A stretch of 64,000 bases of DNA from Candidatus Levyibacteriota bacterium (GCA_049519175.1 JBEKQZ010000001.1:17021-81020), one strand, 5' to 3'; counted from the stretch's first letter, positions 14,114 through 55,447 are shown. A program made the numbers and translations. Notes: generated by a model from the sequence alone, not told the origin.

Positions 14114-16089
<1,976 letters not shown>

Positions 16090-26583: not shown

Positions 26584-26919
26584 TCACTTGCGCTTAATAA
26601 AAAATAATTCGATTCCGCCGAAAAGTATCAATAATAGAATCGCGAAGAATGGAGAAATCAGTCCATTTAACCTCAATGATAAATAAGCAATTACCAGAAG
26701 GCCCAATAAAAATCCCCGGCGGGAATTGTTCAAAATAAAAGTAAAGAAGGAAAAGATTAATAAAAATAAAAGCGTTAATCCTGAAAGCAAAATTGAAAAT
26801 CGAAAATTATAAATTGAAAATTGATAGACGGGGGAATAGTTCAGAACCAAATACCCAAGAGCTATCAAGCTCAAAATGAAAACAATCAACAGCCAAAACG
26901 GTCGTCTTTTCTTATGCAT
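26584..26919 (-). CDS. Small membrane protein (3 TM), hypothetical
   Basis: 111 aa. Hydrophobic helices. Upstream of metG on the same strand. Confidence 0.45.
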   Translation of the reverse strand: MHKKRRPFWLLIVFILSLIALGYLVLNYSPVYQFSIYNFRFSILLSGLTLLFLLIFSFFTFILNNSRRGFLLGLLVIAYLSLRLNGLISPFFAILLLILFGGIELFFIKRK

Positions 26920-26954: not shown

Positions 26955-26991
26955 TTGACAAGGTTTGGCAGTCGTGTTATATTACTGCTAA
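26955..26991 (+). promoter_or_regulatory. hrcA-grpE promoter (TTGACA-17-TATATT) overlapped by a CIRCE-like 9-9-9 inverted repeat
   Basis: TTGACA 26955-26960 and TATATT 26978-26983. TTGGCAGTC-gtgttatat-TACTGCTAA at 26965-26991, compared with CIRCE TTAGCACTC-N9-GAGTGCTAA (right arm 7/9, left arm 7/9). Confidence 0.6.
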
Positions 26992-27011: not shown

Positions 27012-27743
27012 ATGCATGACCTAACAGCCAGACAGGTTGAAATCCTAAAAAGTTTAATTGAAGAGTACATTGAAACGGCCGAACCGGTTGGTTCTGAAAC
27101 GCTTGAGAAAAAACACAATCTAAGCGCCAGTCCGGCCACCATCCGAAACGAAATGGTTCGGCTGACAGATTTAGGCTATTTGAAAAAACCGCATGTCTCA
27201 GCAGGCAGAATCCCGACTCCGGCAGGAATGAAATTCTACGTCAAACAGCTGATGAAGGAAAAAGAGCTGTCAACGGCCGACGAAGTTTCCTTAAAAGAAA
27301 AAGTTTGGGATTTAAGAGAAAAAGAAAGAGATTTCTTAAAGGAAATGACCAGAGCTTTGGCGGAGCGGACAAAAGCTTTGGCAGTGGCAACTACTAACGA
27401 AGGCGACTTATTGGTTTCCGGTTATGCTAACATTTTAGACATGCCGGAATTCTTTGACATCGACTTAACCCGCAATCTTTTGTCGGTAATCGAAGAAGCA
27501 GGATATTTAGAGGGTTTGTGCACGGGGCAAGCAGATGATGACGAAATTCATATTCTTTTAGGCGAAGAATTGGGGCCAAGGCTATCAGGACCATATGGAT
27601 TTGTCTATACCAAGTTTCATACGCCAATGAAGTTAACCGGCGAAATCGGAGTGCTGGGGCCGTCTAGACTGAATTATACTTTCGTTGTCCCAACTGTTAG
27701 ATATTTCGGAGATTTAATCGGTGAAATTGCGCAGGGATGGTAG
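27012..27743 (+). CDS. hrcA: Heat-inducible transcription repressor HrcA (short form)
   Basis: MHDLTARQVEILKSLIEEYIETAEPVGSETL...ATIRNEMVRLTDLGYLKKPHVSAGRIPT.... 243 aa. Confidence 0.9.
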   Translation: MHDLTARQVEILKSLIEEYIETAEPVGSETLEKKHNLSASPATIRNEMVRLTDLGYLKKPHVSAGRIPTPAGMKFYVKQLMKEKELSTADEVSLKEKVWDLREKERDFLKEMTRALAERTKALAVATTNEGDLLVSGYANILDMPEFFDIDLTRNLLSVIEEAGYLEGLCTGQADDDEIHILLGEELGPRLSGPYGFVYTKFHTPMKLTGEIGVLGPSRLNYTFVVPTVRYFGDLIGEIAQGW

Positions 27744-30240: not shown

Positions 30241-32001
30241 ATGTGCGGAATATACGGTTTTGTTTCAAACGAAGAACATTCGGCCAATGAAATCCTGGAA
30301 GGATTAAAACTTTTGGAATACAGAGGCTATGATTCTTGGGGAGTAGCGGTAAAAAGCGGTAAGCAAATTTTCGTTGACAAAAACATCGGCAAAATCGGCA
30401 GCGCCAAACTAAAACCCCGGAAAAGCAATCTTGGCATCGGTCATACGCGTTGGGCCACTCACGGTGGAGTAACTATTAAAAACGCTCATCCTCATCTCGA
30501 TTGTAAACAAAATATCGCCGTGGTTCACAATGGCATCATCGAAAACTATCAGGAGCTAAAGCAAGATTTAATTAAAAAAGGTCACAGGTTCGTTTCCGAA
30601 ACCGACACCGAAGTTTTCGCGCACTTGGTGGAAGAGTTTTTGAAAAAAGACGGCTTTGCAACCGCCGTTAGAAAAGCTTTCAACGTAATTCAAGGACTAA
30701 ATGCGATAGTAGTAATGAGCTCTGTTTCATCCGAAATTGTAGCCGCCAAAACGGGATCACCTTTAATCGTCGGTGTTGGGAATAATGGATTTTTTATCTC
30801 TTCCGATGCGGTAGGAATTTACGGACATGCTACAAAAGCACTTTTCTTAAAAGATAATGAAATGGTGGTTTTAGGAAAAAACTTACAACTAATTTCTTTA
30901 CCAAGAGGGAATAAATTAACGCCGGAATTTGAAAAAATAGAATCTAAAGCGGCGGATAAAGGTAAAGGTGAATATAAACATTTTATGCTGAAAGAAATTA
31001 TGGAGCAGCCGGCGATTTTGCAAAATATCGCCGAAAATTATCAGGATATCATCGCTGATTTAAGCGGTAAAATTAAAAACGCCTACGGCACCTATTTTGT
31101 CGGAGCGGGAACCGCTTTCTATGCCTGTTTGGCCGGAACATATCTTTTTTCCAAAATTGCCAAACTGCATGTCAATACCGCGCCGGCTTCGGAATTTAAT
31201 TATTTGGAAGATTTTTTAACGCCAAAAAGTTTAGTGATTGGTTTATCGCAAAGCGGTGAAACAATCGACGTAATAGAACCATTGCAAATCGCCAAAAAAA
31301 GCAGAGCCAAGATTATTGCCATCACTAACACGAAAGGTTCAACGATTTATCGGATGGCGGATGAAAAAATTCTCCTGGGCGCGGGAACGGAAAAAGCGGT
31401 GGCATCAACTAAAGCCTATTTGGCAAAGCTGTCAATTCTTTTAATGTTGGCGTTTGCGATGAAAGGACAAATTGGGAAAGCCCAGAATCTTTTAGGACAA
31501 GCAGCGAAAGAGATTCAGAGTATTTTTTCTCCGCGGTATCTTAAGCAAATTCAAATGTTGGCTAAAGTTATGCAGTCAAAAGAACATATTTTTATTATCG
31601 GACGCGGAATGTCGTATCCATCGGCTTTGGAAGGCGCTTTAAAAATTCGGGAAGTTAGTTATTTGCACGCCGAGGGGATTGCCGGCGGGGAATTAAAACA
31701 CGGACCAATCGCTTTAATTGAAAAAGGAACGCCCTGCATAGTTTTTGCGCCAAACGATGAAACCTACGCGGCAATTATGTCAAACGCGATGGAAATTAAG
31801 GCCCGCGGCGGAGTAATTATCGGAATTAGCTACAAAAATAGCGAAGTATTTGATTATTTTTTGCAAGTTTTAGATTTACAGGATGCAACGATTCTAACGC
31901 AAATCGTTCCACTGCAGCTACTGGCTTATTACATTGCGGTTAATAAAGGCTTTGATCCGGACAAACCCAGAAATTTAGCTAAAAGCGTCACGGTTAAATA
32001 G
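30241..32001 (+). CDS. glmS: Glutamine--fructose-6-phosphate aminotransferase
   Basis: MCGIYGF... N-terminal Cys nucleophile and two SIS domains. Ends ...SVTVK. Confidence 0.95.
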   Translation: MCGIYGFVSNEEHSANEILEGLKLLEYRGYDSWGVAVKSGKQIFVDKNIGKIGSAKLKPRKSNLGIGHTRWATHGGVTIKNAHPHLDCKQNIAVVHNGIIENYQELKQDLIKKGHRFVSETDTEVFAHLVEEFLKKDGFATAVRKAFNVIQGLNAIVVMSSVSSEIVAAKTGSPLIVGVGNNGFFISSDAVGIYGHATKALFLKDNEMVVLGKNLQLISLPRGNKLTPEFEKIESKAADKGKGEYKHFMLKEIMEQPAILQNIAENYQDIIADLSGKIKNAYGTYFVGAGTAFYACLAGTYLFSKIAKLHVNTAPASEFNYLEDFLTPKSLVIGLSQSGETIDVIEPLQIAKKSRAKIIAITNTKGSTIYRMADEKILLGAGTEKAVASTKAYLAKLSILLMLAFAMKGQIGKAQNLLGQAAKEIQSIFSPRYLKQIQMLAKVMQSKEHIFIIGRGMSYPSALEGALKIREVSYLHAEGIAGGELKHGPIALIEKGTPCIVFAPNDETYAAIMSNAMEIKARGGVIIGISYKNSEVFDYFLQVLDLQDATILTQIVPLQLLAYYIAVNKGFDPDKPRNLAKSVTVK

Positions 32002-32016
32002 TGGTAAAATTAAATT

Positions 32017-32904
32017 ATGGCAAGTAGTGATTATTATCAAATTTTAGGAATTTCCAAAAACGCAACGGAAGCGGAAATAAAAAGAGCTTACCGCAAATTA
32101 GCTCTGCAATATCATCCGGATAGGAATAAAGGTAAGGAAGCGGAGGAAAAATTCAAGGAAGTGAACAAAGCTTACGAAGTTTTGTCCGACACGCAAAAAA
32201 GACAAACTTACGACCAGTTTGGCGCGGCGGCGTTTGAGCAAGGTGGCCCAACCGGGCAAGGAGCCGGCGGACCATTCGGCGGGTTCGGAGGACAACAAGG
32301 TCCGTTCACTTATACCTACTCAACCAGTGGTGGAAATCCGCAGGGGTTTGATTTCGGTGGAGGATTTTCTGACCCGTTTGAAATTTTCGAGCAATTTTTT
32401 GGTGGTGCGTCACCATTTGGCCGGGCGCAAAGACGCTCTACTTATTCACTAACCATTTCCTTTATGGATGCAGTGAAAGGCGCAACTAAAAGAGTGCAAT
32501 TGGAAGGGAAAACGCAGACGATTAAAATTCCTGCCGGAGTTGATAACGGCTCTAGAATTCGCTTTGGTGATTATGACGTAGTGATTGATGTGACGTCGGA
32601 CAGAAAATTCAGGCGGCAGGGCTATGATATTATTTCGGATGAGGAAATTAGTTTTCCGCAGGCTGCACTAGGCGATACGGTTGAAGTCCAAACGGTTCAG
32701 GGTTTGGTCAAAATAAGAGTTCCCTCTGGCACTCAACCGGAAACTCTAATCCGACTGCGGGGCAAAGGTGTAAAAATGTTAAGAGGTTCCGGGCACGGTG
32801 ACCATTACGTCAGAATAAAAGTCACAGTTCCAAAAAATCTTTCCGGACACCAAAAAGAATTGTTAAAAGAATTCGACGACTCCAAAAAACACGGCTGGTT
32901 CTAA
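32017..32904 (+). CDS. dnaJ: DnaJ-class co-chaperone without Zn-finger domain (type II / CbpA-like)
   Basis: J-domain ...[35 protein letters not shown].... Gly/Phe-rich region. C-terminal substrate-binding domains. No CxxCxGxG repeats. Confidence 0.85.
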
Positions 32905-32943: not shown

Positions 32944-33744
32944 TTGACATATATATATATGCTGTGCTTAGATGTATTTATGTTAGGATTTGGTGAACCA
33001 CCAGCGGGAGCAACGCCACAACAAGCTACGGAAACTGTTCCGCCATCAACGCCAGCGGCAACAGAAAATCAGGATAATGAAACTCTGCAGCCCCCCAAAA
33101 AAGGATTAGCGGAAAGACTCCAAGCAGTAAGAGCAGAGTCAGATTTAGTAGAAGATGAAGCTAGAGAAAGTTTGGCAAAGATATTAAAAGATATAAGAGG
33201 CGTCATGGAGATTGTTGCTACAACATTGCCAATAGATCCCCAAAAATCATCTAGGGACAAACCAAGAGATTCAGCGCTACAATTACCTGATGGAAGATAT
33301 GTTAGGACAACAACAGCTTTTGGTGAAGAGTTTAGAGAAGGTATTTTTGTTGGTGCAGATGGGGAAAAAGCGAAAGTTAGCTTGGAGACTAGAGGGTCAT
33401 ATGATCGGGCATTGGACCCTAATGATCAAGCAGCAGTTGAAAAAATGCATGATTTCGATAAATTTATTAACATTCAAGACCCAGAAGATCCTAGCTTAAC
33501 AGTGGGAATGAGCACAATGTTCCCAGGGAGATTTTATATTGAGCAGTTGGATAAAAAAGATGACACAGTGTTCGTAGAAAAAAGTTATAGGGATGATAAA
33601 GTGTACATGGGAAAACTTGAAAATGGAGGAGATCCCCTTGAAATAGCCAGAAGAACTATAGACTTTGCGACAGCAGCAAGGCTACAACAGGCGGAAGTGC
33701 CGGTAGCAACAGCCACTCCTCAGCCGATGTCAACAGTAGCTTAG
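32944..33744 (+). CDS. Hypothetical acidic soluble protein encoded on an ~850-bp insert with atypical codon usage
   Basis: The ORF-track start is a TTG that coincides with a TTGACA -35-like hexamer. Alternative ATG starts at about 32959 and 32980. Enriched in ATA/CCA/GCA/ACA/GTA/AGA codons relative to neighbouring genes. No TM segment and no recognisable domain. Confidence 0.5.
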   Translation: MTYIYMLCLDVFMLGFGEPPAGATPQQATETVPPSTPAATENQDNETLQPPKKGLAERLQAVRAESDLVEDEARESLAKILKDIRGVMEIVATTLPIDPQKSSRDKPRDSALQLPDGRYVRTTTAFGEEFREGIFVGADGEKAKVSLETRGSYDRALDPNDQAAVEKMHDFDKFINIQDPEDPSLTVGMSTMFPGRFYIEQLDKKDDTVFVEKSYRDDKVYMGKLENGGDPLEIARRTIDFATAARLQQAEVPVATATPQPMSTVA

Positions 33745-33824: not shown

Positions 33825-34154
33825 TTGATGCTTAAACTGCCCGTTCAAATTCTCAAATTTTGGTATCTGGAAGCACCAAGTAATATCCTCAAGTTTTTTG
33901 CTTCACTAAATTCAGCTTTTTTTGGTGTCTTTTCGCTTCCTCTAATGGTTAAAACTTTCTTCAAACCCTGGAAAAATGAATATAGAGAAGGTTTAGTTGG
34001 TTTCTCAATAATTATGGGAATGATAATAAAGAGTTTATTTATTTTTGCCGATTTGTTTCTGTTCGTCGGTCTTTTAATTTGCGAAATAGCAATGTTTTTA
34101 ATCTTTTTAATTTTACCAATTGCGGTGTTTATTTTGCCGTTTATTAAACTATGA
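33825..34154 (+). CDS. Small 3-TM membrane protein translationally coupled to the Clp-like ATPase
   Basis: 109 aa, hydrophobic. ATGA 4-nt overlap with the downstream gene. Confidence 0.5.
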   Translation: MMLKLPVQILKFWYLEAPSNILKFFASLNSAFFGVFSLPLMVKTFFKPWKNEYREGLVGFSIIMGMIIKSLFIFADLFLFVGLLICEIAMFLIFLILPIAVFILPFIKL

Positions 34155-36523
34155 AAGGCTTTGCAAAATTTTATTTTTACTACACCAGTTCAATTATAAT
34201 TTTAGCCCGGCTTTTACTGTTCATCCTCTTTGCGGTTGGATCTGCGTTTCTCATTATCAACAAATTTACTCCGAATATATTTTTACTGTTGCTTGGTTTA
34301 ATGTTAGTATTTGAAATTTTCTTTAAATATAAAATTGCCAAAACAAATCCAAAAGTCGAAGTCTTGCAAAATACCGGTGATCCGCTTGATTCATTCTCGC
34401 TAGAATTATTGGGTATTCTGGAAACACAAAAGACCGTTTCGCAAATCATTAAACAATTGATCAATCTCCCACAAATGCAATTCATAATTCTGAAAGCGGA
34501 TTTAAAACCCGAAGGAATTATTTTAGTTGATGGAGACAAACAAACACTAATCCAATCCACATTCAATTTAGCAAAAGAAGCCAAAGGTAAATACGTCACA
34601 GCGATGGATTATTTCATCGCTTATTTGCTGTTAATCGAGCCGTCGGCAAAAATTTTGTTCAACCATAAATTAAAAGAAGAAGATCTCAAAAATATTTTAG
34701 CGTGGGCCAGACACGTTCACACGGAGGAAGAGTCGCCGAAACAAACTATTGTTAATTTTGCCGGAGAGGGCATTGCCGAAGAGTGGGTTTACGGGTGGAC
34801 GCTGGAAACCAAGAAATACATGCTTGACTTAAGCCACGAATTTTTAAGCGGCAGAATCGAACCGATGCGTCGGGTCAACGAATTCCAGCAATTGACGGAA
34901 GCGCTTTTCAAAGGCGACAGCGTAATTTTGGTTGGCGATGCGGGCAGCGGCAAAGAAGCAACTGTTAAAGAATTGGCGATCGAAAGTTTTATGGGCAGAC
35001 TAAAAAATAATCTATATCATCAAAAAATTTATCAATTGATGGTCGATGCGTTTATGGCCGGCGCACAAAATCAGGGTGAAATTGAAGCTAGAATTAATGC
35101 TTTAATTACGGAAATTGCCCACTCCGGCGATACGATAATTTATATTCCGGAATTCCAAAATACTTTGGGCAGTTCCACGTTTCATTTGGATATTTCCGGC
35201 GCTTTAATTCCCTATTTGCAGAAAAAAGAAATCCGAATTATTGCGACAGTAACACCTGGTGCTTATAAAACTTTTCTTGAACCAATGAAAACACTTTTAG
35301 ATAACTTCACAGTAATCAATTTCTCCGAGCCTTCAAAAGAAGAAGTGTTACAAATGCTGTTTCAGAAAGCGGCGGTAATTGAAGAAAAAGATAATGCCGT
35401 CATTACTTACAAAGCGGTACTGGCGGCCTGTAATTTTGCCGATAGATACTCAAAGGAAAAAGTTTTGCCGGGGAGTGCAGTGACGCTTTTGGAAGATACG
35501 GCTAACGCCGATAAAGTTTCCGGTAAGCGCATCGTAGAAGAACAGGATATTTTGAGTCAAATCGAGAAAAAAATTCGAGTCCCCGTAGGAGAGCCAAAAC
35601 CAATTGAAAAAACGCTACTTTTAAATTTAGAGAATGAAATTCACAAAAGAGTAGTAGATCAGGAAGAGGCTGTGTTTGCAATCTCGGAAGCAATTAGAAG
35701 GCTTAGAACCGGTCTTAATGTGGCCGAAAAGCCGATCTCGTTTCTATTTTTGGGCCCCACCGGCGTTGGCAAAACCGAAACCGCCAAAGCGCTGGCTGCT
35801 GTTTATTTTGGGCAAGGTGCCAGAATGATTAGATTGGATATGAGCGAATTTGTGGGAGAGGAGGGAATAAAGAAACTTTTGGGCTCCGCTCCCGGCGAAG
35901 GAAGTGAAAAAGGTGAATTGGAAATGGTTTATGACAATCCCAATTCGTTAGTGCTTTTGGATGAGTTTGAAAAAGCCGACCAGCAAATTTTAAATTTATT
36001 TTTGCAGGTTTTAGATGATGGTAGACTGACCGATGATAAGGGCAAAACTGTTTCGTTTGCCAATTGCATTATCATTGCCACTTCTAACGCCGCCTCGGAA
36101 TTTATCAGGGAAGAAGTTGGTAAAGGCGTTCAAGTTAACAAACAGTTCCAACAAAACCTCATCAACTATTTGGAAACTAAAGGCATTTTTAAGCCCGAAC
36201 TTTTAAACCGTTTTGACGACATCATTACTTTCAAACCGCTCGGGCAAACGGAAATAACGCAAATAGTAAAATTAATGCTCATCGGCGTTGCCAAGGAGTT
36301 GGCGGCCAAAGATATTACAGTTTATTTTGATGAAAAAATCATCGTCAAAATTGTCAATGAGGGATTTGATAAAGATTTTGGTGCCAGACCTTTGCGAAGA
36401 TTTATCCAAGACAAAATAGAAGATTTAATTGCGCAAGCAATCCTTAAAGATGAAATCAAACGCGGTGACAAAATCCAAGTCTCCGTTGATTCCACAAATA
36501 ATATCTCCGTAAATAAACCTTAA
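34151..36523 (+). CDS. Membrane-anchored Hsp100/Clp-family AAA+ ATPase with degenerate D1 module and canonical D2 module
   Basis: Two N-terminal TM helices. D1 ...VILVGDAGSGKEATVKELA... (Walker A Thr replaced by Glu) and ...TIIYIPEFQN... (Walker B Asp replaced by Pro). D2 ...FLFLGPTGVGKTETAKALA..., ...LVLLDEFEKA..., sensor-2 GARPLRRFIQ. No long M-domain and no IGF/IGL ClpP-docking tripeptide seen. Confidence 0.7.
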   Translation: MKGFAKFYFYYTSSIIILARLLLFILFAVGSAFLIINKFTPNIFLLLLGLMLVFEIFFKYKIAKTNPKVEVLQNTGDPLDSFSLELLGILETQKTVSQIIKQLINLPQMQFIILKADLKPEGIILVDGDKQTLIQSTFNLAKEAKGKYVTAMDYFIAYLLLIEPSAKILFNHKLKEEDLKNILAWARHVHTEEESPKQTIVNFAGEGIAEEWVYGWTLETKKYMLDLSHEFLSGRIEPMRRVNEFQQLTEALFKGDSVILVGDAGSGKEATVKELAIESFMGRLKNNLYHQKIYQLMVDAFMAGAQNQGEIEARINALITEIAHSGDTIIYIPEFQNTLGSSTFHLDISGALIPYLQKKEIRIIATVTPGAYKTFLEPMKTLLDNFTVINFSEPSKEEVLQMLFQKAAVIEEKDNAVITYKAVLAACNFADRYSKEKVLPGSAVTLLEDTANADKVSGKRIVEEQDILSQIEKKIRVPVGEPKPIEKTLLLNLENEIHKRVVDQEEAVFAISEAIRRLRTGLNVAEKPISFLFLGPTGVGKTETAKALAAVYFGQGARMIRLDMSEFVGEEGIKKLLGSAPGEGSEKGELEMVYDNPNSLVLLDEFEKADQQILNLFLQVLDDGRLTDDKGKTVSFANCIIIATSNAASEFIREEVGKGVQVNKQFQQNLINYLETKGIFKPELLNRFDDIITFKPLGQTEITQIVKLMLIGVAKELAAKDITVYFDEKIIVKIVNEGFDKDFGARPLRRFIQDKIEDLIAQAILKDEIKRGDKIQVSVDSTNNISVNKP

Positions 36524-37836: not shown

Positions 37837-39315
37837 ATGGATATTAAAAATAAAAAAAATGCTACAGAAGAATTCTATCCCCCGGTAGTCGCGGTTTTGG
37901 GTCACGTTGACCACGGGAAAACCACACTTTTGGATGCCATTAGAAAAACCAATGTTGCCGCCGGGGAACACGGTGGAATTACACAAAAAATCGGCGCCTC
38001 GGAAATCGAAATAATGCACGACGGCGTCAAGCGCAAAATCACTTTCATCGACACTCCCGGTCATGAAGCTTTTTCGCAGATGCGCGGCCGCGGCGCGCAA
38101 GCCGCAGACGTAGGGCTATTAATAGTCTCCAGTGTGGACGGGGTAATGCCGCAAACCAAAGAAAGCATCCAGCTTTTAAAAAATTCAAAAATTCCCTACA
38201 TTGCCGTTTTGACCAAAAGCGACGACCCAAACAAACAAGTTGAAAAAACCAAACAGCAATTGCTAAAAGAAGAAGTTCTACTTGAAGGTTACGGCGGGGA
38301 TGTGCCGGTGATTGAGGTGTCCGGAAAAACCGGCGACCACGTCAAAGAGTTATTAGAGTTAATTCTATTAGTTTATGAAATGAAAAAAGAGGCCAATTTT
38401 TATCCTTTTAAAAAGACAGGAACGCTCATGGGAATTGTCATTGAGTCTAAACTGGATAAAAATTCCGGGCCACGCGCGACGGTTGTCGTCAAGAATGGAA
38501 TTCTCAAGGTTAAAAGCGAAATTTTCGCCGGAGACATCCGGGGAAAAGTGCGAGGTTTAATTTCGGACACCGGTAAAAATTTACAGGAAGTCAGCGTCGG
38601 TGAGGCAATCGAAGTGCTGGGCTTTGAAAAAGTGCCAGCTGTCGGAAGCGTGGTTACCGATACACCAAAAATAGCTGAAGCTTTCGCCTACAAAGAAGAA
38701 ATTTCGGTGAATAAACTTCCCGAATCGCCGTTTGCAGTGGAAAACCAAAATGTGCTTTCCATCGTTCTTTGCGCCGATTCGGCCGGTTCTTTGGAAGCAA
38801 TCATAAACGCTGTTCCTAAAGGTAATTTACAATTTGTAATTCAAAAAACCGGCGATGTCGACGTCTCCGACATTTTATTTGCTAAATCAACCGGCTCGAT
38901 AGTTTTAAGCTTCAACGTTAAAATAAAGCCGGAAATTGCCAAGTTGGCGAAAACGGAAAAAGTGCTGGTTAAAAATTACACCATCATTTACGAAATGATC
39001 GATGAAGTCAGCGATTTTGTGCAAGGGAAACTGGAATCTTTGCAGGAGGAAATTATGGGCATTGCCAAGATTCTGGCCAGTTTTCCTTATGAAAAAACCA
39101 AAGTCATGGGAATTAAAGTGAGTGAGGGAAGAATCGCCAAAGGAGACAAAATAAGACTGCTGCGGGATGAAGCGGTGATTGGCGAAACCCGCGTTTCTTC
39201 GGTTAGACAAGGCAAGGAACAAGCCTCCAAAATCGAGGCCGGACAAGAAGGCGGCGTTATCGTGTCGCCCTTTCTTGACTTCGCAATAGACGATGTGCTA
39301 ATATCCCATAGCTAA
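37837..39315 (+). CDS. infB: Translation initiation factor IF-2 (short form lacking the N-terminal region)
   Basis: ...VVAVLGHVDHGKTTLLDAIRKTNVAAGEHGGITQKIGA.... 492 aa. Confidence 0.93.
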   Translation: MDIKNKKNATEEFYPPVVAVLGHVDHGKTTLLDAIRKTNVAAGEHGGITQKIGASEIEIMHDGVKRKITFIDTPGHEAFSQMRGRGAQAADVGLLIVSSVDGVMPQTKESIQLLKNSKIPYIAVLTKSDDPNKQVEKTKQQLLKEEVLLEGYGGDVPVIEVSGKTGDHVKELLELILLVYEMKKEANFYPFKKTGTLMGIVIESKLDKNSGPRATVVVKNGILKVKSEIFAGDIRGKVRGLISDTGKNLQEVSVGEAIEVLGFEKVPAVGSVVTDTPKIAEAFAYKEEISVNKLPESPFAVENQNVLSIVLCADSAGSLEAIINAVPKGNLQFVIQKTGDVDVSDILFAKSTGSIVLSFNVKIKPEIAKLAKTEKVLVKNYTIIYEMIDEVSDFVQGKLESLQEEIMGIAKILASFPYEKTKVMGIKVSEGRIAKGDKIRLLRDEAVIGETRVSSVRQGKEQASKIEAGQEGGVIVSPFLDFAIDDVLISHS

Positions 39316-48228: not shown

Positions 48229-49188
48229 TTATTGGCCGTATTTGGCAATGTTGGCTTCGTGCCCCTGAAGAGTAGTGGCAAAATGTAAGTGCCCTTGTTT
48301 GTCGGCAAAGAAGTACAGATAATCGGTTTTGGCCGGATTCAAAGCAGCTTCAATTGCGGACAAGCCCGGATTACTAATCGGTCCTGGCGGAAGGCCGGGA
48401 TTTTTCCTGGTATTGTACGGAGAGTCAATCTCTAGATCGGCAGCGGTTAAATCTTTTTTCCACCAGGTCTTGGTATCCGGCTGATAACCCAAAGCATACA
48501 TGACGGTTGGATCGGAGCCCAAAGCCATTCCAATGTTTAGCCTGTTGATAAACACCGAAGCGACTAATGGCCGGTCCTGGGCAAACATTGCTTCTCTTTC
48601 GATAATAGAAGCAAGGATAATTGTTTGAGCATCAGTTAAGTTAGTTGTCTTCTCGTTTCTAACGCTATCGTATTTGGTTTGGAAATTATTTTTCATCAGC
48701 GTTATGACCGTATTCACATCGGCGTCCCGCGGGATTAAATAAGTATCGGGGAATAGGTATCCCTCGTTGGCGTCTAATGCGGCGCGCCAGGATTCATTAT
48801 AACTGGGAAGTTTCTCTTTGAATAGGTCGGCAATTTCGTCTGCCCGGTATCCTTCCGGAATCGTTACCCAAATATCTAATGTTCCATGGGTCAGGTCACT
48901 GGCTACCTCACTCATCGTCATTGCCGGGTTTAGGCGGAAATCCCCCGCCTGGATTTGCTTATCCAAGCCGTTAATTCTGGCGTATAAGAAGAAAACAATC
49001 GGGTCGCGGATTAATCCGGCGGTTTTTAAATTATTGGCAATTTCCCTGACACCCTCACTTTTATCAATCACAAATATTTTGGGAGCTTTGTCGCTACTAT
49101 TGGCTGCCAATAGCCCATTTTGCCACCAGAGGAAAATTCCGACTGCCAGAACTACTAAAATCGTAATTAAAGCAACTAACCTTTTCAT
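48229..49188 (-). CDS. mltG: Endolytic murein transglycosylase MltG (YceG family)
   Basis: N-terminal TM. ...DYLYFFADKQGHLHFATTLQGHEANIAKY C-terminal signature. Confidence 0.85.
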   Translation of the reverse strand: MKRLVALITILVVLAVGIFLWWQNGLLAANSSDKAPKIFVIDKSEGVREIANNLKTAGLIRDPIVFFLYARINGLDKQIQAGDFRLNPAMTMSEVASDLTHGTLDIWVTIPEGYRADEIADLFKEKLPSYNESWRAALDANEGYLFPDTYLIPRDADVNTVITLMKNNFQTKYDSVRNEKTTNLTDAQTIILASIIEREAMFAQDRPLVASVFINRLNIGMALGSDPTVMYALGYQPDTKTWWKKDLTAADLEIDSPYNTRKNPGLPPGPISNPGLSAIEAALNPAKTDYLYFFADKQGHLHFATTLQGHEANIAKYGQ

Positions 49189-50462
49189 GTGTATTTAACA
49201 ATTGGGAAGTTCACTAGTGAGTCTTTCCCTTCCTTAAGATTATACACATTTTCGCTAAAAAGTGTATAGATGGTTTCATTTTTCAAAACCTTATCGCCGA
49301 TTTTTTTGTTTAAGTAAATTCCGGCGCCTTTCTGTTTTGGGGCGCCTAAAATTTTAGCAATGGCGGTGATGTTTTTACAATTTAATTCCTTAACAACTCC
49401 GCTTTTATCGGCTTTTTCTTCAAAGGCATTTTTACCCAGGCGTAATTTATCACTTTTAACATTTGGATTTCCTCCCTGTGCTTCAACAATTTGTTTAAAT
49501 TTTTCCAGAGCTCTGCCTGACTGTAAAATATCCAAAGCCCAGCCGTAAGTATTGCCGTAAATTTCTTTTATTGATTTGCGCAGCTCTTGAGGACTATCTT
49601 CAAGACATAGCTCCAGAAGGTTACTGGCTAAATTAATCGCTCTGACTTCCAAATCCAAAGGCCTATCTTTAGTTTGCTCTAACACTTTTAATGATTCCCT
49701 AATCTCCAGAACCGGTCCAATGCCGCGTCCTGCCGGCTCTTCGGTGTGGTGAATTAGCACTTTGAGCCTAATTTTAAATTTCTTGGCCAAAAAGTTAAAT
49801 TTTGCTTGGATTCGTTGAGCATCTTTTAAGCTGTGTGCCTTAACAGTTCTGCCATAAGGGAGATCAATCACAACATGGTTACTGCCGAAAGCAATTTTTT
49901 TGGCCATAATTGACACCAGAATTTTATCGAAGCTTTCAAACACTAACGGTTTTTCAACTTGGATAATAAGGTCGTCGGCCGGGGCAATTTTAAAACTGCC
50001 TCCCCAAACAATGCAACCGTTAGTCTTGTTAACAACGTCGTAAATCTGTTTTTCGGTTAGCTCCACCGGAGCTAAAACTTCCATGTCATCGGCAGTTCCG
50101 TCGGGAGTGGTAATTGCGCGAGAAGAACTTTTAGGAATTTTAAAACCTGCGGCGGCCACAATAGCAACAACTATGGGTGTCGTTCTGGTTCCCGGGACTC
50201 CGCCGATAGAATGCTTGTCGGCAATAATTCCTTTAAATTGTAATTTGTGTCCGGTTTCAACCATGGCTTTGGTTAAGTAGTAAAGTTCTTGATTACTAAA
50301 GCCTTCGGAGTACCCGGAAGCGGCAAAATAAGTAGTTAAAATCTCTCCGAGTCTTTGCCGAGAGATTTGGTCCATGATGGCATAGATTTCTTTGTAAGTT
50401 AAATTTTTGCCTAAAATCTTTTTACGGATAGCATTAACTGCTTGTTCTTTCTCGTCTATCAT
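49185..50462 (-). CDS. deoA: Thymidine/AMP phosphorylase family enzyme (glycosyl transferase family 3 fold)
   Basis: ...DKHSIGGVPGTRTTPIVVAIVAAAG...GGSFKIAPADDLI.... 425 aa. Confidence 0.8.
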   Translation of the reverse strand: MIDEKEQAVNAIRKKILGKNLTYKEIYAIMDQISRQRLGEILTTYFAASGYSEGFSNQELYYLTKAMVETGHKLQFKGIIADKHSIGGVPGTRTTPIVVAIVAAAGFKIPKSSSRAITTPDGTADDMEVLAPVELTEKQIYDVVNKTNGCIVWGGSFKIAPADDLIIQVEKPLVFESFDKILVSIMAKKIAFGSNHVVIDLPYGRTVKAHSLKDAQRIQAKFNFLAKKFKIRLKVLIHHTEEPAGRGIGPVLEIRESLKVLEQTKDRPLDLEVRAINLASNLLELCLEDSPQELRKSIKEIYGNTYGWALDILQSGRALEKFKQIVEAQGGNPNVKSDKLRLGKNAFEEKADKSGVVKELNCKNITAIAKILGAPKQKGAGIYLNKKIGDKVLKNETIYTLFSENVYNLKEGKDSLVNFPIVKYT

Positions 50463-50507
50463 ACTTGCCGGGAGACAGTTCTAATAAAAGATTTAATTAT
50501 TGTTTCC

Positions 50508-50537
50508 AAGAAGAAAAGGGTGTCATTAATCACCCTT
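50508..50537 (-). terminator. Terminator-like hairpin downstream of the sortase gene
   Basis: On the minus strand, AAGGGTG-attaatga-CACCCTT followed by UUCUUCUU. Confidence 0.35.
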
Positions 50538-50589
50538 CTGATAGTTGGCCAAATTTGGATTAAGATGCGTAATAAGAAAGGTTTTTCGT

Positions 50590-51321
50590 TCATATTTTTT
50601 CCACTTTCGTTTTAACCACCAATCTTTTCCAAGTTGTGCCGGGCGGTGTGCAAGTGACCAGAGTTAAATAACTATCGTCAAAGCTTTGTTCCAAAATAGA
50701 AGTGTTCTCCGGGTCAACGACGGTAATATTTTGCACTTGATATTTGTAAGTAGATTTACCGACATTAACGATAATTTCATCGCCGGGGGATAACTCATAC
50801 AGATAAGTAAAAACGGTTTTGTAACTTTTGGCATCGTAGAGTTGAGGTAGGGTGGAATGTCCAAAAACTACCGCATTACCTTTCTCGCCGGGAATAGCGG
50901 TCCCACCATAATTTACCAAATGACTGGCTAAATCATTATCAACCGTTGATACGACAGCATTGACTATGTTTAATTTAGGGATTGATAAGGAGTAAGTTGT
51001 TACTTGCTGTTTTGTATTCGATTGCCTTTTAAAATTAGGAAACCAATTATCAGCATTATTATAGTCAACGCCGCTAAGCGTGTTTGAGGCTTCGGCCAAA
51101 AGAGTTTGAAAAGTTGAGCTATTTACAATAGTGCTTTGCGGGATCGGGGAGCTAATATTTTGACTGGCAAATACCGGCGCAAAATAGATTTGCCAAGAAA
51201 TTAACGGTAGAAAAACGTAAGCCGTGATTACTAGTCCTATCGCAAAAATTCCTAACCCGATTAAGCGGGTGAATTTCTTCTTTCTATTTCCTTGGGCTTT
51301 TTTGTAATAAACTTTTGGCAT
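50590..51321 (-). CDS. Sortase-family transpeptidase
   Basis: N-terminal TM (LIGLGIFAIGLVITAYVFLPL), catalytic His in ...NAVVFGHSTLP..., catalytic Cys in ...YLTLVTCTPPGT..., and a downstream Arg (WKRLVV). 1-nt overlap with the upstream gene. Confidence 0.75.
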   Translation of the reverse strand: MPKVYYKKAQGNRKKKFTRLIGLGIFAIGLVITAYVFLPLISWQIYFAPVFASQNISSPIPQSTIVNSSTFQTLLAEASNTLSGVDYNNADNWFPNFKRQSNTKQQVTTYSLSIPKLNIVNAVVSTVDNDLASHLVNYGGTAIPGEKGNAVVFGHSTLPQLYDAKSYKTVFTYLYELSPGDEIIVNVGKSTYKYQVQNITVVDPENTSILEQSFDDSYLTLVTCTPPGTTWKRLVVKTKVEKI

Positions 51322-53672
51322 TATTTGGCAGTGATTTGGATTGTGATATTTTTAGGATTACCCGGCAGGTTGGTGGATAAGAAAGGAAGGCTTGGTTTTA
51401 GCTCAATGCCGACGTTTTCAACTTGAGAAAGACTGGAGAGTATGCTTCTGGCTTTGGTTAGCGAAGTCCCGGCAATTTGTTTGGCTATTTGGTTATTATC
51501 GAATTTGGGCAAAAGATTAGCACTAATTGCTAAATCTGCGGAGACGTCCCCGTTGTCGGCAACCGTAATATTTTTGGCGTTAACCGAAAGATTGTTTTTG
51601 CTAAGTTGAGTATTGCCACTGCTAAAAAGCGAATTGGCAACGGATAACATATCCGAAGCGTTGTAAGTTAAGCTTTGAAAATCGACCGTACCTTTTAGCG
51701 TTACACTGCTGGCCTGGTCCCCGGCATTTTTATCGAAGCTTTTATTGCTAATTGTTTCGCTGGTAAAACCGGACAATAAGACATTATCTCCCGTAACTTT
51801 GCTTTGCAGGTCGTTTTTAGCCTTGCTTTCAAGCTGTTTAGGCAATCCGTCTAAAAGTTTTTGAATGTCGTCTTTAGAGACAACCGTGACGGTTTTTTTG
51901 GCTCCGCCGGAAAACGCATTATCGTTTTTGGCGGCCACATCCCCAAGTGAATAATCGCCGACGCTGAATTTAGTTCCGGACGGTAAATTATAGTTTTGGC
52001 CGATATCGGAAGCCGTTATATTCACCGTGGCAGTCCCGGGGGTTTGATTAGAAGCATCTCCGGACGCCGAAGCCACTGAGGTGTCGCTGTCCAGAGTAAA
52101 ACTTAAATTATCTGGAGAAGTAATAGTTGTTCCGGAGGGCAAATCGATTGGGTTACTGGTGGCGTTAAAAATGGTTACGGAACCCTTAGCGGCAGTGCCG
52201 ATATCTTTTGTGCCACTGGAATTAACAGACATACTGCCGTCTTCGGAAACGGAAACCGGTTGCGAAGCAATAACACTGCTGGCAATATCCGTGGCTTTAT
52301 TTGAAGAAAAAGTAACCGAGGTAGTTTTCTGGTCGGATTTAGGATTAACCAAAAGCGTTACGGTTGCTTGGGCGTTGAAAATTAAGAAGAATGCTCCCAG
52401 CAAAAGTAGAATCACAATTGCGGCAGGAATAATTAGCACGGCATTTCGTTTTGATTTTCCGGCCGGATTGAATTTTTTGAAGAAGTTTATTATTGATACT
52501 CTAGCTTTAGCAGCTGTTAGGAGAGCAGTTCGTACCAATCCTGTTTTTGTTTCTTCTTCGATTTTTTCTTCTTCGGGAATTTCATTGAATTCCTCTTTAA
52601 TTACTTCGTCCGGCACTTTTTTCATTACCGGTTCGGGCTCCGGTTTTGCGCTTTTAGCGATATCGACTCCTTCGGCAAAGCCGAAATAAGCCAGTGAGTC
52701 GTCGGGGCTAATATAATCAGGTTTGTTGGTTGCGTTGACTGTTGCTCCTTCACTAGTTCCTACCGATTCGCCCGTTGCTTTTTCCCTTTCCTTGGCTTCC
52801 GACGCTGCAACCTTAGCGTTTATTTCCTCAAATTCTTTCGGTGTTTGGACCGGTTCGAAATTTGAAAATTCCTCAGGAGAGATCTTTTTTGGTTGTTCAT
52901 CGAAATCCACATTTTGCGAATCATAGATTAGTTGGGCGCCCATTTGAGTAGCGGCGCCTAAAAGCATGGCCTTAATTGATGCATCTTTGGGTAGGGTGGT
53001 AATTTGCGGCAGGTGCAGAAACGGTAAGCTTTTGCTCCATGGATGCCCGATAAACTCTTGGGTTATTTCTTCGTCATCAGCTCCGTAGATAACCACCCGG
53101 GATGGCATTGCTTCAGTAGCCTGAAAATGTTTTAGAAGCGTGTCAACCGTAAATGGAGCAGATTCGTGGATTTCCGAAGATTTGGTCTCGATAATTTTAC
53201 CGCTTTTAACCAAGGAAACGGTAATAAATTTTGTTCCCATATCCACCAAAACTGCGGTAACTGGTGCGCCTTCCTCCTGCTGTAAGAGATTAATAACGCT
53301 TTCGCTGGAAACCAAAAAACCAATCGGCTCAAGCGCCAATTCGTCGCTAGCTTTTTTTAGTTTTTCCAAATACTCCTTTTTAATTTTATTGTCTTCAATC
53401 CAATTTTCTTTTAATCCGAAGATGGTTTTGTGGCTTTCGACATTATCCGGTAGGACATTTTCCGCCTGGCTAATCGATTTATCCAAAACCTCCAGAAATT
53501 GTTCGGTCGTAGCGTCTTCAATCGTATTGTCAAAATCTTCTTCCCCATGTCCCAGGTATTTGATGACATTGCCCGATTTGGCAAATAAGATTGAGGTGGC
53601 TCGTTCATTCCTTAGCACCAGAGCCATATAGTATTCCGGTTTAACCTTACTGTCTAAAAAAGGCAACTTCAT
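51321..53672 (-). CDS. Bitopic fusion protein: N-terminal PilM/FtsA-like actin-fold domain, one TM, and a large Ser/Thr-rich extracellular domain
   Basis: ...YYMALVLRNERATSILFAKSG... and ...AVLVDMGTKFITVSLVKSGKI... (actin-like phosphate-1/-2-type motifs). TM AVLIIPAAIVILLLLGAFFLIF at about aa 400. C-terminal about 350 aa has low complexity with beta-rich repeats and no LPXTG. Confidence 0.5.
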   Translation of the reverse strand: MKLPFLDSKVKPEYYMALVLRNERATSILFAKSGNVIKYLGHGEEDFDNTIEDATTEQFLEVLDKSISQAENVLPDNVESHKTIFGLKENWIEDNKIKKEYLEKLKKASDELALEPIGFLVSSESVINLLQQEEGAPVTAVLVDMGTKFITVSLVKSGKIIETKSSEIHESAPFTVDTLLKHFQATEAMPSRVVIYGADDEEITQEFIGHPWSKSLPFLHLPQITTLPKDASIKAMLLGAATQMGAQLIYDSQNVDFDEQPKKISPEEFSNFEPVQTPKEFEEINAKVAASEAKEREKATGESVGTSEGATVNATNKPDYISPDDSLAYFGFAEGVDIAKSAKPEPEPVMKKVPDEVIKEEFNEIPEEEKIEEETKTGLVRTALLTAAKARVSIINFFKKFNPAGKSKRNAVLIIPAAIVILLLLGAFFLIFNAQATVTLLVNPKSDQKTTSVTFSSNKATDIASSVIASQPVSVSEDGSMSVNSSGTKDIGTAAKGSVTIFNATSNPIDLPSGTTITSPDNLSFTLDSDTSVASASGDASNQTPGTATVNITASDIGQNYNLPSGTKFSVGDYSLGDVAAKNDNAFSGGAKKTVTVVSKDDIQKLLDGLPKQLESKAKNDLQSKVTGDNVLLSGFTSETISNKSFDKNAGDQASSVTLKGTVDFQSLTYNASDMLSVANSLFSSGNTQLSKNNLSVNAKNITVADNGDVSADLAISANLLPKFDNNQIAKQIAGTSLTKARSILSSLSQVENVGIELKPSLPFLSTNLPGNPKNITIQITAK

Positions 53673-53674
53673 AA

Positions 53675-55447
53675 TTAGCCGACAACGGCATAGATTCGGC
53701 GCTGTCCGTGGCCGATATTCTCCTGCTTTATTATTTTAAACTTTTTAATTTCACCTGTAAAATTTACATGAGGTCCTCCGCAGAATTCTTTGGAGTAGTC
53801 GCCGACAAAATAAACCTTAACATTGTCAGCGTATTTTTCGTCAAACAAGCCGATTGCCCCCAGTTGTTTGGCTTTGGCAAGCGGTAGAATTTCGAAATGT
53901 ACGGGTAAATTCTCTTTAATTTTTTCGTTGACGGTGGCCTCAATTTGAGTAATTTCGTTATCCTCTAGCTTCCGATCGAAGTTGAAATCAAATCTTACCC
54001 GTTCACTTGTTATGTTCGAACCTGTTTGATGGAGTTGTTCTCCAAACATGTCTCGTAAGGCTTTATGTAAAAGGTGAGTAGCGGTATGTCCCATGATAGT
54101 TTTTTCGGCATGGTCGGCTAAACCGCCTTTGAATTTTTGTTCGGCGCCGGCTCTGGATAATTTTTGGTGTTCTTCCATCTTTTTGGCAAATTCCTGCTCG
54201 TTAAAAACATAACCTAATCCTCTGATTTGAGTTGGAGAAAGACCATGTGTTGTATACATTCTAAAGGCATCATCGGCAGAAATTTCTTTAGTATTTTTCG
54301 TTCCTCCTGTAGTTTTTAGTAGCTTTTCCGCTTCACTAATTGTTCTTTGGTAGTTTTGTAGTTCTTCTAAAATGACATTTTTTATTTCCTCATATTTTTC
54401 TTTTAAATCTTCGTCAGTCGTTGAGTATTGTTCAACAATTTTTTCTATTACTGTTGTAATATTCTCGCCGTCCAAGATGCGGAAATTATCGAGTGCACGC
54501 CTAATTAGTCTTCGTAAAATATACCCTTGCTCGGTCTTCGCTGGTTTGATGCTGGCAGCAGCAATAAACGTCGATGCTACTAGATGGTCGGCGATAATCT
54601 GCATTTCCTTTTTGTTTTGGTCATAAGTCTTACCACTTTCGTCCTCAATAGTTTTTATTATCGAGGCAAAAAGGGAAGTCTGGAAAACGTCGGACTTATT
54701 TTCAACCGCCGCCAATAATCTCTCGACGCCCCCGCCATAATCAACATTTTTTTGCGGTAGTTCTTCGAAACTTTGCTCCGTTTTTCGATATTGCATAAAA
54801 ACAGAATTCGCAATTTCCATAAACTTACCGCATTTGCAGTCAATCGGATTGTCCTTGCATTCGGGTTGATGTTCGACTTCGTCAAAACGATAATAAACTT
54901 CGGTGTCAGGTCCGCCGATTTCGCCGACTGGCATATTTTTAGGAAGACCACTACGTGACCACCAATCTGTATCGTCAAAAGTTATTTTTTCTTTCGGATT
55001 AAATCCGTCTTTTTTCAGGATTTCCGCCCAAATTCCATATGCTTCTTCGTCTTTTTGAATATTTCCGTAGCCGTTAAAAACAGTAATAAACAGTTTCTCC
55101 TTGGGGAGTCCGAACTCTTTTATCAAAAGCTCCCATAGCCAGGGAATTTCTTCGTTTTTAAAATAATCTCCAAGAGACCAATTGCCAAGCATTCGGAAAA
55201 ATGTCTCGTGACGGTTGTCTCCGACTTCCTCGATATCAACCGCCCGGAAACAATTCTGAACATCAACCAATCTTTTTCCGGCAGGATGTTGTTCGCCCAT
55301 TAGATAGGAGACTAAAGGTTGCATCCCCGCGGATGTGAAAAGCGTAGTTGGGTCGTTTTCCGGAATCAGCGGAGAATTAGCAATGCGTTTGTGCCCGCGT
55401 TTTTCAAAAAAACTAATGTAGATATCAATAATTTCTCTAGCTGTCAT
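53675..55447 (-). CDS. alaS: Alanine--tRNA ligase (short form)
   Basis: ...FFEKRGHKRIANSPLIPENDPTTLFTSAGMQPL... class II core and the editing-domain HxxxH/CGG.HV motifs. 590 aa. Confidence 0.9.
   Translation of the reverse strand: MTAREIIDIYISFFEKRGHKRIANSPLIPENDPTTLFTSAGMQPLVSYLMGEQHPAGKRLVDVQNCFRAVDIEEVGDNRHETFFRMLGNWSLGDYFKNEEIPWLWELLIKEFGLPKEKLFITVFNGYGNIQKDEEAYGIWAEILKKDGFNPKEKITFDDTDWWSRSGLPKNMPVGEIGGPDTEVYYRFDEVEHQPECKDNPIDCKCGKFMEIANSVFMQYRKTEQSFEELPQKNVDYGGGVERLLAAVENKSDVFQTSLFASIIKTIEDESGKTYDQNKKEMQIIADHLVASTFIAAASIKPAKTEQGYILRRLIRRALDNFRILDGENITTVIEKIVEQYSTTDEDLKEKYEEIKNVILEELQNYQRTISEAEKLLKTTGGTKNTKEISADDAFRMYTTHGLSPTQIRGLGYVFNEQEFAKKMEEHQKLSRAGAEQKFKGGLADHAEKTIMGHTATHLLHKALRDMFGEQLHQTGSNITSERVRFDFNFDRKLEDNEITQIEATVNEKIKENLPVHFEILPLAKAKQLGAIGLFDEKYADNVKVYFVGDYSKEFCGGPHVNFTGEIKKFKIIKQENIGHGQRRIYAVVG

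Follow-up and report, generated by a model that had tools for sequence, protein, structure and literature searches.

A predicted membrane-anchored Hsp100/Clp ATPase and its small membrane partner in Patescibacteria

Organisation of the locus and architecture of the ATPase

Hsp100/Clp proteins are textbook soluble threading motors. Here we describe a two-gene locus of Candidatus Levyibacteriota bacterium in which a protein of this class is predicted to be anchored in the membrane and is paired with a small membrane protein. The locus lies within a 64,000-nucleotide stretch of DNA (GCA_049519175.1 JBEKQZ010000001.1:17021-81020, hereafter the window), from whose first letter all positions are counted. 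Both genes, and all of their features given below, are on the plus strand. The upstream open reading frame (ORF), 33825..34154, encodes the small membrane protein, with 109 amino acids (aa) when translated from a TTG codon and 108 aa when translated from an ATG (33828..34154), the start used in database records. The downstream ORF, 34151..36523, encodes a Clp-like class-I Hsp100 ATPase of 790 aa, an assignment based on domain, motif and structural evidence; it is 100% identical to an NCBI protein from a metagenome-assembled genome. The stop codon of the small gene and the start codon of the Clp gene share an ATGA at 34151..34154, where the sequence reads ...AAA CTA TGA AAG GC..., an arrangement consistent with translational coupling of the two genes.

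The ATPase contained two tandem AAA+ modules, the second of the AAA_2 type and followed by a ClpB_D2-small domain, which is the hallmark of class-I Hsp100/Clp proteins. Pfam matches comprised AAA_2 at residues 528-691 (3e-42), ClpB_D2-small at 697-777 (8e-23) and AAA_lid_9 at 395-474 (4e-6); the same scan gave no AAA match above cut-off for the first module (D1) and no match to Clp_N. D1 aligned to ClpB D1 with an E value of 1e-22. An AlphaFold monomer model (mean predicted local distance difference test score, pLDDT, of 81.6) found its best Foldseek matches in ClpC (E 1e-46), ClpB and ClpA, and the highest sequence scores were to ClpB (1qvr, 1e-98; TIGR03346, 406.5 bits). None of the curated family cut-offs was reached, however, including those of ClpB (TIGR03346, 406.5 versus 1232.1 bits; NF008118, 335 versus 1417), ClpA (NCBIfam TIGR02639, 371 versus 993 bits), and ClpV/TssH, ClpK and ClpG (311 versus 885, 335 versus 1900 and 334 versus 1900 bits). 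The protein is a class-I Hsp100 that falls below every curated ClpA, ClpB, ClpV, ClpK and ClpG threshold. It was colinear with ClpA and had no M-domain insertion, as the 1qvr alignment left out the ClpB stretch between residues 415 and 507, opposite which the query had 27 residues at most, and no long coiled coil was present in the AlphaFold model. The ClpP-docking tripeptide [ILVM]G[FLM] was absent between sensor-1 and the Arg finger of the second module (D2), where the stretch reads SNAASEFIREEVGKGVQVNKQFQQNLINYLETKGIFKPELLNRFD.

By hydropathy, residues 11-60 were the only strongly hydrophobic block of the ATPase. This block coincides with two helices of the AlphaFold model, residues 14-36 and 43-62, which form an N-terminal transmembrane (TM) hairpin (34190..34336). 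The counts of Lys plus Arg were 1.85 in the N-terminal tail, 0.75 in the hairpin loop and 3.7 after the second TM segment, in keeping with the positive-inside rule, and the hairpin is predicted to be N-in/C-in with the ATPase domains in the cytoplasm. Throughout 110 full-length homologs (58-100% identity), the first 62 residues could be aligned, and M1, R20, P41, F58, K61 and P67 were invariant in a 15-sequence alignment. Because the N-terminus is conserved and carries invariant positions, a mis-called start of the Clp gene is excluded.

Between the hairpin and D1, residues 75-190 (34373..34720) formed a helical domain in the AlphaFold model. A family profile of this region matched ClpA-N (4.9e-6), ClpC-N (~1e-5) and ClpB-N, with E values ranging from 5e-6 to 2e-4, and Pfam Clp_N was matched by 7 of 34 relatives, the present ATPase not being among them. 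On these profile matches, the region is a divergent Clp_N-like domain. It is followed by a linker at residues 191-232 (34721..34846), the most conserved stretch after D2, in which 40% of the columns were at least 95% conserved. The linker bears FAGEGIAEEWVYGWTLETKKYMLDLS and carries the motif FAGEGIAEEWVYGWTLETKKY; distant members have the equivalent motif NRAWTARPTP. Residues 203-215 of the linker had a pLDDT below 50 in the monomer model. Such high conservation combined with low monomer confidence is typical of an interface, which makes the linker a candidate contact site for the partner protein.

The motifs of both rings were assessed by residue-level alignment with T. thermophilus and E. 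coli ClpB, and the alignments were unambiguous because the flanks of the motifs are highly conserved. D1 (residues 233-478, 34847..35584) retained the fold, as judged from the ClpB alignment and the secondary structure of the model, and bore the sequence marks of a pseudo-ATPase. Its Walker A motif (residues 262-269, 34934..34957) reads GDAGSGKE for ClpB GEPGVGKT, with the Thr/Ser after the Lys replaced by Glu, and its Walker B motif reads IIYIPEF for ClpB ILFIDEL, with Asp replaced by Pro (IIYIPE, residues 329-334, 35135..35152). In the model, the former follows a strand at residues 257-261 and the latter ends a strand at 329-332. The D1 pore loop (residues 306-309, 35066..35077) is QNQG where ClpB has KYRG, so that the Tyr is gone, and the Arg-finger positions R331 and R332 of ClpB (ERRF) are occupied by D384 and N385 (35300..35305). 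The mean pairwise identity of D1 was 0.68, with 25% of its columns at least 95% conserved, and the Gly and Lys residues of Walker A were invariant, which argues that D1 is under constraint and not decaying. An annotation artefact, in which a wrong start would give a false TM segment, or a decaying gene, in which D1 would be a relic, thus has next to no probability: this D1 conservation, the alignable N-terminus with its ATGA coupling and the retention of the architecture in about 1000 representative clusters all speak against it.

D2 together with D2-small (residues 484-790, 35600..36520), identified from the Pfam matches and the invariant motifs, appears to be the only catalytically competent ring. 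Its Walker A GPTGVGKT (residues 535-542, 35753..35776), Walker B LVLLDE (read as LLDEFE in the ClpB alignment; residues 600-605, 35948..35965), canonical sensor-1 N646, Arg finger R687 in LLNRFD (36209..36211) and sensor-2 GAR with R746 (residues 744-746, 36380..36388) were essentially invariant in the 110 homologs, and 54% of the columns in the large subdomain were at least 95% conserved. The D2 pore loop (residues 581-588, 35891..35914) departs from this pattern. It reads PGEGSEKG for ClpB PGYVGYEEGG, contains no aromatic or hydrophobic residue and is two to three residues shorter than the ClpB loop. As far as the sequence allows, D1 is a catalytically dead ring with an intact fold and D2 is the sole motor.

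Most features that had been noticed in the original prediction are upheld by these analyses, namely the two N-terminal TM helices, the Thr-to-Glu and Asp-to-Pro replacements in D1, the canonical D2 as regards its catalytic motifs, and the lack of both the M-domain and the IGF/IGL loop. Realignment of D1 gave GSGKE and IYIPE and did not recover an intact GK[TS]/hhhhDE pair, and the suspicion that the hydrophobic N-terminus stems from a wrong start was dispelled by its conservation. The losses go further than had been described, extending to the D1 pore Tyr, both D1 Arg fingers and the D2 pore aromatics, and the divergent Clp_N-like domain had been overlooked.

Distribution of the family and the small partner

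A genome scan with the N-terminal 480 residues of the ATPase as the query returned 40 loci. Fifteen close loci encoded full-length relatives with 35-84% identity in Levybacteria and their neighbours, and 25 distant loci with 24-32% D1 identity came from Wolfe-, Lipton-, Harrison-, Colwell- and Uhrbacteria, Paceibacterota and bins labelled Saccharibacteria. Since GK[ED] was part of its pattern, the scan was biased to a degenerate Walker A, but not to any of the other features. In nearly all 40 loci the N-terminal hydrophobic segments were present, the D1 pore Tyr and Arg fingers were lost, the catalytic motifs of D2 were canonical and its pore loop was non-aromatic. In three Uhrbacteria-like members, L036 (7374..10091), L038 and L039, a Cys-rich extension (…CSACGADSRASASCHMCHGAG…) precedes the TM segments and resembles a small zinc-ribbon appended to the membrane-anchored Clp.

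An unbiased HMMER search with the same profile against 1.84 billion representatives, each standing for a cluster at 50% identity, gave 1049 matches at E<=1e-30. Features were counted on the 107 full-length proteins among the best 150. N-terminal TM segments were found in 99 of the 107 and canonical D2 Walker A and B motifs in 106, while the D1 motifs were kept in a minority (GK[ST] in 42, DE in 25). An aromatic residue occurred in the D1 pore loop of nine proteins and somewhere in the D2 pore-loop region of 33 (e.g., PGESYET); others had aliphatic residues in the latter region (GKISG). The few representatives without TM segments were ordinary soluble Clps with YRG, ERRF and GYVGY. The ClpP-docking loop was absent in 40/40 related loci and in 102 of 105 representatives; two of the three proteins with a similar tripeptide were ordinary soluble Clps, and the third, P0366, had an LGL elsewhere. 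These counts indicate a Patescibacteria-wide family of about 1000 clusters rather than a local oddity. The loss of pore-loop aromatics extends through the whole family. The features proposed to delimit the family, an N-terminal TM segment, the small partner, a non-aromatic D1 pore loop, a canonical D2 and the absence of the ClpP loop, are all present in the locus described here and recur in the related loci and representatives.

The D2 pore loop was nearly invariant within Levybacteria and was hypervariable or deleted across the whole family (e.g., L017, P0248, P0325 and P0330). This bears on the possibility that the ATPase is a membrane-tethered unfoldase or extractor, which would thread misfolded or aggregated membrane proteins from D1 to D2 by unconventional loops, use the small protein as an adaptor or entry gate and form part of the heat-shock response. 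The class-I Hsp100 fold, with ClpC, ClpB and ClpA as the best structural matches, the intact D2 motor with its Arg finger, a predicted topology that tethers the entry face to the membrane as in FtsH and Msp1, and the Tyr or aliphatic residue in the D2 loop of some relatives are what such a machine would be expected to have. The replacement of both canonical pore-loop tyrosines, the variability and deletion of the D2 loop, and the lack of an M-domain for Hsp70 coupling and of a loop for a protease partner are not. Extraction by threading is considered rather unlikely.

The small protein encoded upstream had 424 homologs, all of about 108-111 aa. It showed no match in Pfam, NCBIfam or PADLOC, and no Pfam domain was detected in any of the 424. 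N-terminal helices with FWYLEAP are followed by an invariant loop, TFFKPWKNEYREGL, and a C-terminal TM hairpin, and the AlphaFold model had a pLDDT of 86. The protein had initially been described as 109 aa long with three TM helices. Two strong TM segments (residues 55-79 and 85-105) are predicted, whereas the helix at residues 20-41 is weakly hydrophobic, so that a third TM helix is unproven, and database records use the 108-aa form.

The association of the two genes was consistent across the loci. In all 15 close loci the small gene directly preceded the Clp gene in the same orientation. Of the 25 distant loci, at least 16 had as their best match to a hidden Markov model (HMM) of the partner family the ORF whose end meets the Clp start. 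These distant upstream ORFs, of 113-140 aa, had an (F/H)WY motif, a F-x-P-(W/L)-(K/Y)-(N/Q)-(E/D) loop, a G..G..(K/R) pattern and a TM region with W...P. Seven of the 15 close loci, and five of the distant ones, had the same -4 overlap, in keeping with the translational coupling that had been proposed for this locus, and the suggested survey of the candidate phyla radiation (CPR) for the pair of a small membrane protein and a membrane Clp was likewise positive, the pair being present in all close and most distant loci. A profile built from the close and distant small proteins retrieved 592 proteins annotated as hypothetical in Patescibacteria. In a reverse test from two small-protein homologs, the next gene encoded an AAA_2 plus D2-small protein of 832-838 aa in 5/5 places.

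Furthermore, the partner domain was found independently fused to the N-terminus of the ATPase in P0325 (1e-20), P0296 (9e-17), P0346, P0342, P0366, P0327 and P0318. L035 had a weak partner-domain match at the ATPase N-terminus and no separate small gene upstream. The fused proteins contained a single hydrophobic block, about 50-70 aa long, where two would be expected. A simple end-to-end fusion was therefore rejected, and the partner hairpin seems to replace the hairpin of the ATPase itself in the fused forms. The fused members mostly keep the GKT and DE of D1 and still have no pore-loop aromatics, their D2 loop being sometimes deleted; the family would accordingly be defined by the loss of the gripping loops, the membrane anchor and the partner, and the decay of the D1 Walker motifs in the present ATPase is a later, lineage-specific step and not a hallmark of the family. 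Synteny and fusions together identify the small protein as a genuine conserved partner of the ATPase, as far as genomic evidence goes.

Charged residues were conserved within the TM segments of both proteins (E55 and R20 in the Clp; K68, D75 and E86 in the partner). They would suit a nucleotide-dependent switch or scaffold, in which D2 binds and slowly hydrolyses ATP and regulates the small membrane protein, for instance a channel or assembly platform, in the manner of Torsin- or MoxR-type AAA+ proteins. The loss of gripping loops from both rings and the obligate small partner point in the same direction. However, D2 keeps the Walker B Glu, sensor-1, Arg finger and sensor-2 of a fast Hsp100 motor, and the intramembrane acidic residues of the partner were not conserved in distant lineages. 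We regard a switch of this kind as improbable.

Full-text literature searches gave no paper describing a membrane-anchored Hsp100 family of the CPR. A survey of CPR protein families lists a single ClpC/ClpB-type family, fam03231, in 1355 CPR genomes, given as cytoplasmic and with 0 TM helices (PMC6744442). If the membrane-anchored Clp branch falls within fam03231, it was not distinguished there (PMC6744442), and the label of the family would be misleading for a branch without the ClpP-docking loop. The same survey records ClpP in 1327 CPR genomes and ClpX in only 33 (PMC6744442, Supplementary Data). Since the membrane-anchored Clp has no ClpP-docking loop, CPR ClpP presumably relies on canonical ClpC.

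A pair of similar architecture is encoded by the Saccharibacterium Southlakia epibionticum. SEML1_0701, a 127-aa hypothetical protein described as a helical hairpin, overlaps the upstream end of SEML1_0700, an 860-aa 'AAA family ATPase' in which AAA_2 spans 544-706 and D2-small 713-792, Clp_N being absent (PMC10633639). Judged by this architecture, SEML1_0701/0700 is the probable Saccharibacteria counterpart of the pair. Transposon sequencing classified both genes as NE, NE, GD, that is, non-essential with a late growth defect (PMC10633639, Table S1), and the normalised reads dropped for both SEML1_0700 (4124 to 1638) and SEML1_0701 (258 to 51) (PMC10633639); neither gene is discussed in the text of that study. 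The genome also encodes a canonical ClpC, SEML1_0512, with two Clp_N repeats and UVR and located next to nusA, as well as ClpP, SEML1_0493, both non-essential (PMC10633639). If SEML1_0700/0701 represent the same module, it is dispensable in co-culture, adds to fitness and has two genes that behave alike. The coexistence of canonical ClpC and ClpP would then mark the family as a paralogue with a role of its own.

Gene neighbourhood and other features of the window

In the window, hrcA-grpE-dnaK-glmS-dnaJ are followed in order by a 266-aa orphan ORF, the small gene, the Clp gene, nusA, infB and a 345-aa ORF. Downstream of the Clp gene, nusA-infB were retained in 14/14 close loci that extend that far. 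When all ORFs of the 40 loci were clustered, the recurrent Levybacteria neighbours besides the small gene were nusA, infB and the 345-aa ORF, and the distant lineages had MFS, PolX, NUDIX, IF3 and L20 instead; no functional clue emerged from the clustering. The 266-aa ORF immediately upstream (32944..33744, plus strand) was considered as a third component and rejected, as Pfam recognised no domain in it and tblastn found no counterpart in the 40 related loci. This orphan is lineage-specific and rich in Pro, Thr and Ala at both ends.

PADLOC matched the ATPase to DolB (8e-37) and PDC-M37B (3e-32), which raised the possibility that it belongs to an anti-phage defence or mobile system, as do the ClpB-like ATPases Dodola DolB and PDC-M37B. 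These matches covered residues 475-661 against profile positions 115-290 of 375 and reflect generic ClpB-type similarity, since only the AAA core of D2 is covered. No partner defence genes were found, the pair holds a fixed housekeeping position upstream of nusA-infB in many species, and it is vertically conserved phylum-wide. With a partial D2 match and housekeeping neighbours, the defence reading was discarded as very improbable.

The placement of the pair behind hrcA-grpE-dnaK-glmS-dnaJ had been taken in the original prediction as the end of a heat-shock block. All these genes are on one strand with no strong terminator in between, which would favour an extractor acting in the heat-shock response. 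This link was not substantiated. An upstream dnaJ was confined to L001-L009, the nearer relatives, where it was 342-7797 bp away, and there was none within 8 kb in L010-L012 and L014, so that the heat-shock neighbours are not conserved past close relatives. A search of the 64 kb for the CIRCE operator TTAGCACTC-N9-GAGTGCTAA with up to three mismatches found none, including upstream of groEL at 14467. In a promoter and terminator scan, the only strong promoter-like site was the one upstream of hrcA, at 26955, and the surroundings of the Clp module yielded nothing decisive. Since the neighbourhood is not conserved and CIRCE is missing, the position at the end of the heat-shock block is a matter of local gene order and not functional evidence.

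Several other features of the window were recorded. The hrcA homolog (27012..27743, plus strand) is present without a CIRCE in the window, and the HrcA operator may be divergent. The DnaJ homolog (32017..32904, plus strand, 295 aa) has zero cysteines and hence no CxxCxGxG zinc finger; this class-B (CbpA-like) protein is the only J-protein in the hrcA-grpE-dnaK block. glmS (30241..32001, plus strand) is inserted between dnaK and dnaJ, and the same insertion in L006 shows that the local order is conserved in some Levybacteria. The ORF at the infB position (37837..39315, plus strand), identified by its position and by GTPase motifs in the translation, has 492 aa and would be without the long N-terminal domains of typical bacterial IF2, a short length that is apparently conserved in related loci. 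A very hydrophobic 111-aa ORF without a Pfam domain (26584..26919, minus strand) lies beside a probable metG, named from its translation, and occupies the same place in L003, L007 and L008. Finally, a 783-aa ORF (51321..53672, minus strand) within the block 48229..55447 carries a Baseplate_J-like domain (PF04865, E 1.2e-7) and belongs to a series of large ORFs on the same strand, close upstream of probable rpoB/rpoC (1139 and 1262 aa, named by size only). The block may represent a prophage remnant or a cluster of the phage-tail or contractile-injection type.

Mechanistic interpretation and comparison with known systems

The interpretation that we favour, and to which we give about an even chance, is a two-subunit AAA+ machine of the inner membrane that has D2 as its sole motor, works independently of ClpP and DnaK and is unlikely to thread canonically. 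The two genes would encode the two subunits of one machine conserved across Patescibacteria, the large one being a paralogue of ClpA/B/C-type Hsp100s. With its N-terminus as the tether, the ATPase must have the N-domain/D1 face at the membrane, where the two-TM hairpin would hold this substrate-entry face against the cytoplasmic side. D1 would be a conserved non-hydrolysing ring that probably serves as an assembly scaffold, and it may still bind nucleotide, as the Gly and Lys residues of its P-loop are invariant. With its trans-acting Arg finger and sensors intact, D2 should work in a ring, which would be hexameric. Docking to ClpP is impossible without the IGF/IGL loop, and so is ClpB-style coupling to DnaK without the M-domain. 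A conserved, putatively cytoplasmic loop of the partner, KPWKNEYREG, may contact the conserved Clp linker EGIAEDWVYGWT. As gripping aromatics are absent, D2 hydrolysis would most likely drive a conformational change that affects the small subunit and the TM region or is passed on through them. In this way a membrane-embedded client would be remodelled, gated or assembled, rather than aggregates being processively unfolded.

Three observations weigh against this interpretation. First, the aromatic residues in the D2 pore region of 33/107 representatives and the aliphatic ones in others may leave some threading capacity. Second, the near invariance of the Levybacterial D2 loop implies that it is functional and may contact substrate. 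Third, a D1 entry face at the membrane is, by analogy, the geometry of FtsH and Msp1, which favours an extractor. Conversely, the membrane-protein disaggregase or extractor that had first been proposed is weakened by the loss of both pore tyrosines and by the family-wide variability and deletion of the D2 loop. Of the overall picture drawn from the sequence at the outset, the membrane-anchored Hsp100, the dead D1 and the real partner stand, and the heat-shock disaggregase does not; the pair is probably not one.

The pair thus probably represents a new architectural, and probably also mechanistic, variant of the Hsp100 family that is widespread in Patescibacteria and uncharacterised. In a stronger form, proposed here tentatively, it would be an undescribed membrane AAA+ machine and a new mechanistic class of Hsp100, one that has given up threading and uses D2 to drive a small integral-membrane subunit, acting as a mechanotransducer, gate or remodeller of the envelope. 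For the AAA+ field, a large, ancient, conserved, membrane-anchored branch with one silent ring, no gripping tyrosines and a small membrane protein invariably beside or fused to it would widen the known roles of the Hsp100 fold. For Patescibacteria, it would add a conserved two-gene module to a radiation that accounts for much of bacterial diversity and in which very few lineage-specific machines have been characterised. If this holds true, a non-threading machine acts on the envelope of bacteria that are without many conventional envelope systems. Its probable counterpart, SEML1_0700/0701, sits in a genetically tractable Saccharibacterium, and both genes tolerate insertions.

Among known systems, the order Clp_N, D1, D2 and D2-small, the N-domain profile and the best structural match ally the ATPase with ClpC and ClpA; it differs from them by the TM hairpin, the dead D1 and the absence of the IGF/IGL loop, a UVR or M-domain and the pore Tyr. 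With ClpB/Hsp104 it shares the top sequence scores, identical D2 catalytic residues and the lack of a ClpP loop, but it has no M-domain or pore tyrosines, an inactive D1 and a membrane anchor, and scores far below the ClpB cut-off. An N-terminal TM anchor and an entry face at the membrane are likewise found in FtsH, Msp1/ATAD1 and Bcs1, which makes action on membrane proteins plausible, and Bcs1 works without classical aromatic threading loops. Those proteins are, however, single-ring members of the classical AAA clade, whereas the present one is a double-ring Hsp100 of the HCLR clade with a small subunit. FtsH in addition has an M41 protease domain, and no Peptidase_M41 was among the Pfam matches of the Clp-like ATPase.

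Torsin, with LAP1/LULL1, is also a membrane-associated AAA+ protein of the ClpB-D2 lineage that has no aromatic pore residues and a membrane-protein partner. It forms a single ring in the lumen of the endoplasmic reticulum, has no Arg finger of its own and borrows that of its partner. In contrast, D2 of the present ATPase has its own invariant Arg finger, R687, and sensor-2, R746, and the likeness is one at the clade level. In each of NSF and p97, a conserved ring (D2 and D1, respectively) is catalytically silent and the other ring does the work, an analogy that supports the reading of D1 as a scaffold; both are soluble and keep the gripping loops in their active ring, unlike the protein described here. 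A class-I Hsp100 within a membrane complex that has dedicated membrane subunits is known from the Plasmodium translocon PTEX (HSP101-PTEX150-EXP2; PMC7355975). HSP101 is soluble, retains its pore tyrosines and places its D2 face on the export pore, whereas in the Patescibacteria pair the tyrosines are absent and it is the N-terminal/D1 face that is predicted to lie at the membrane.

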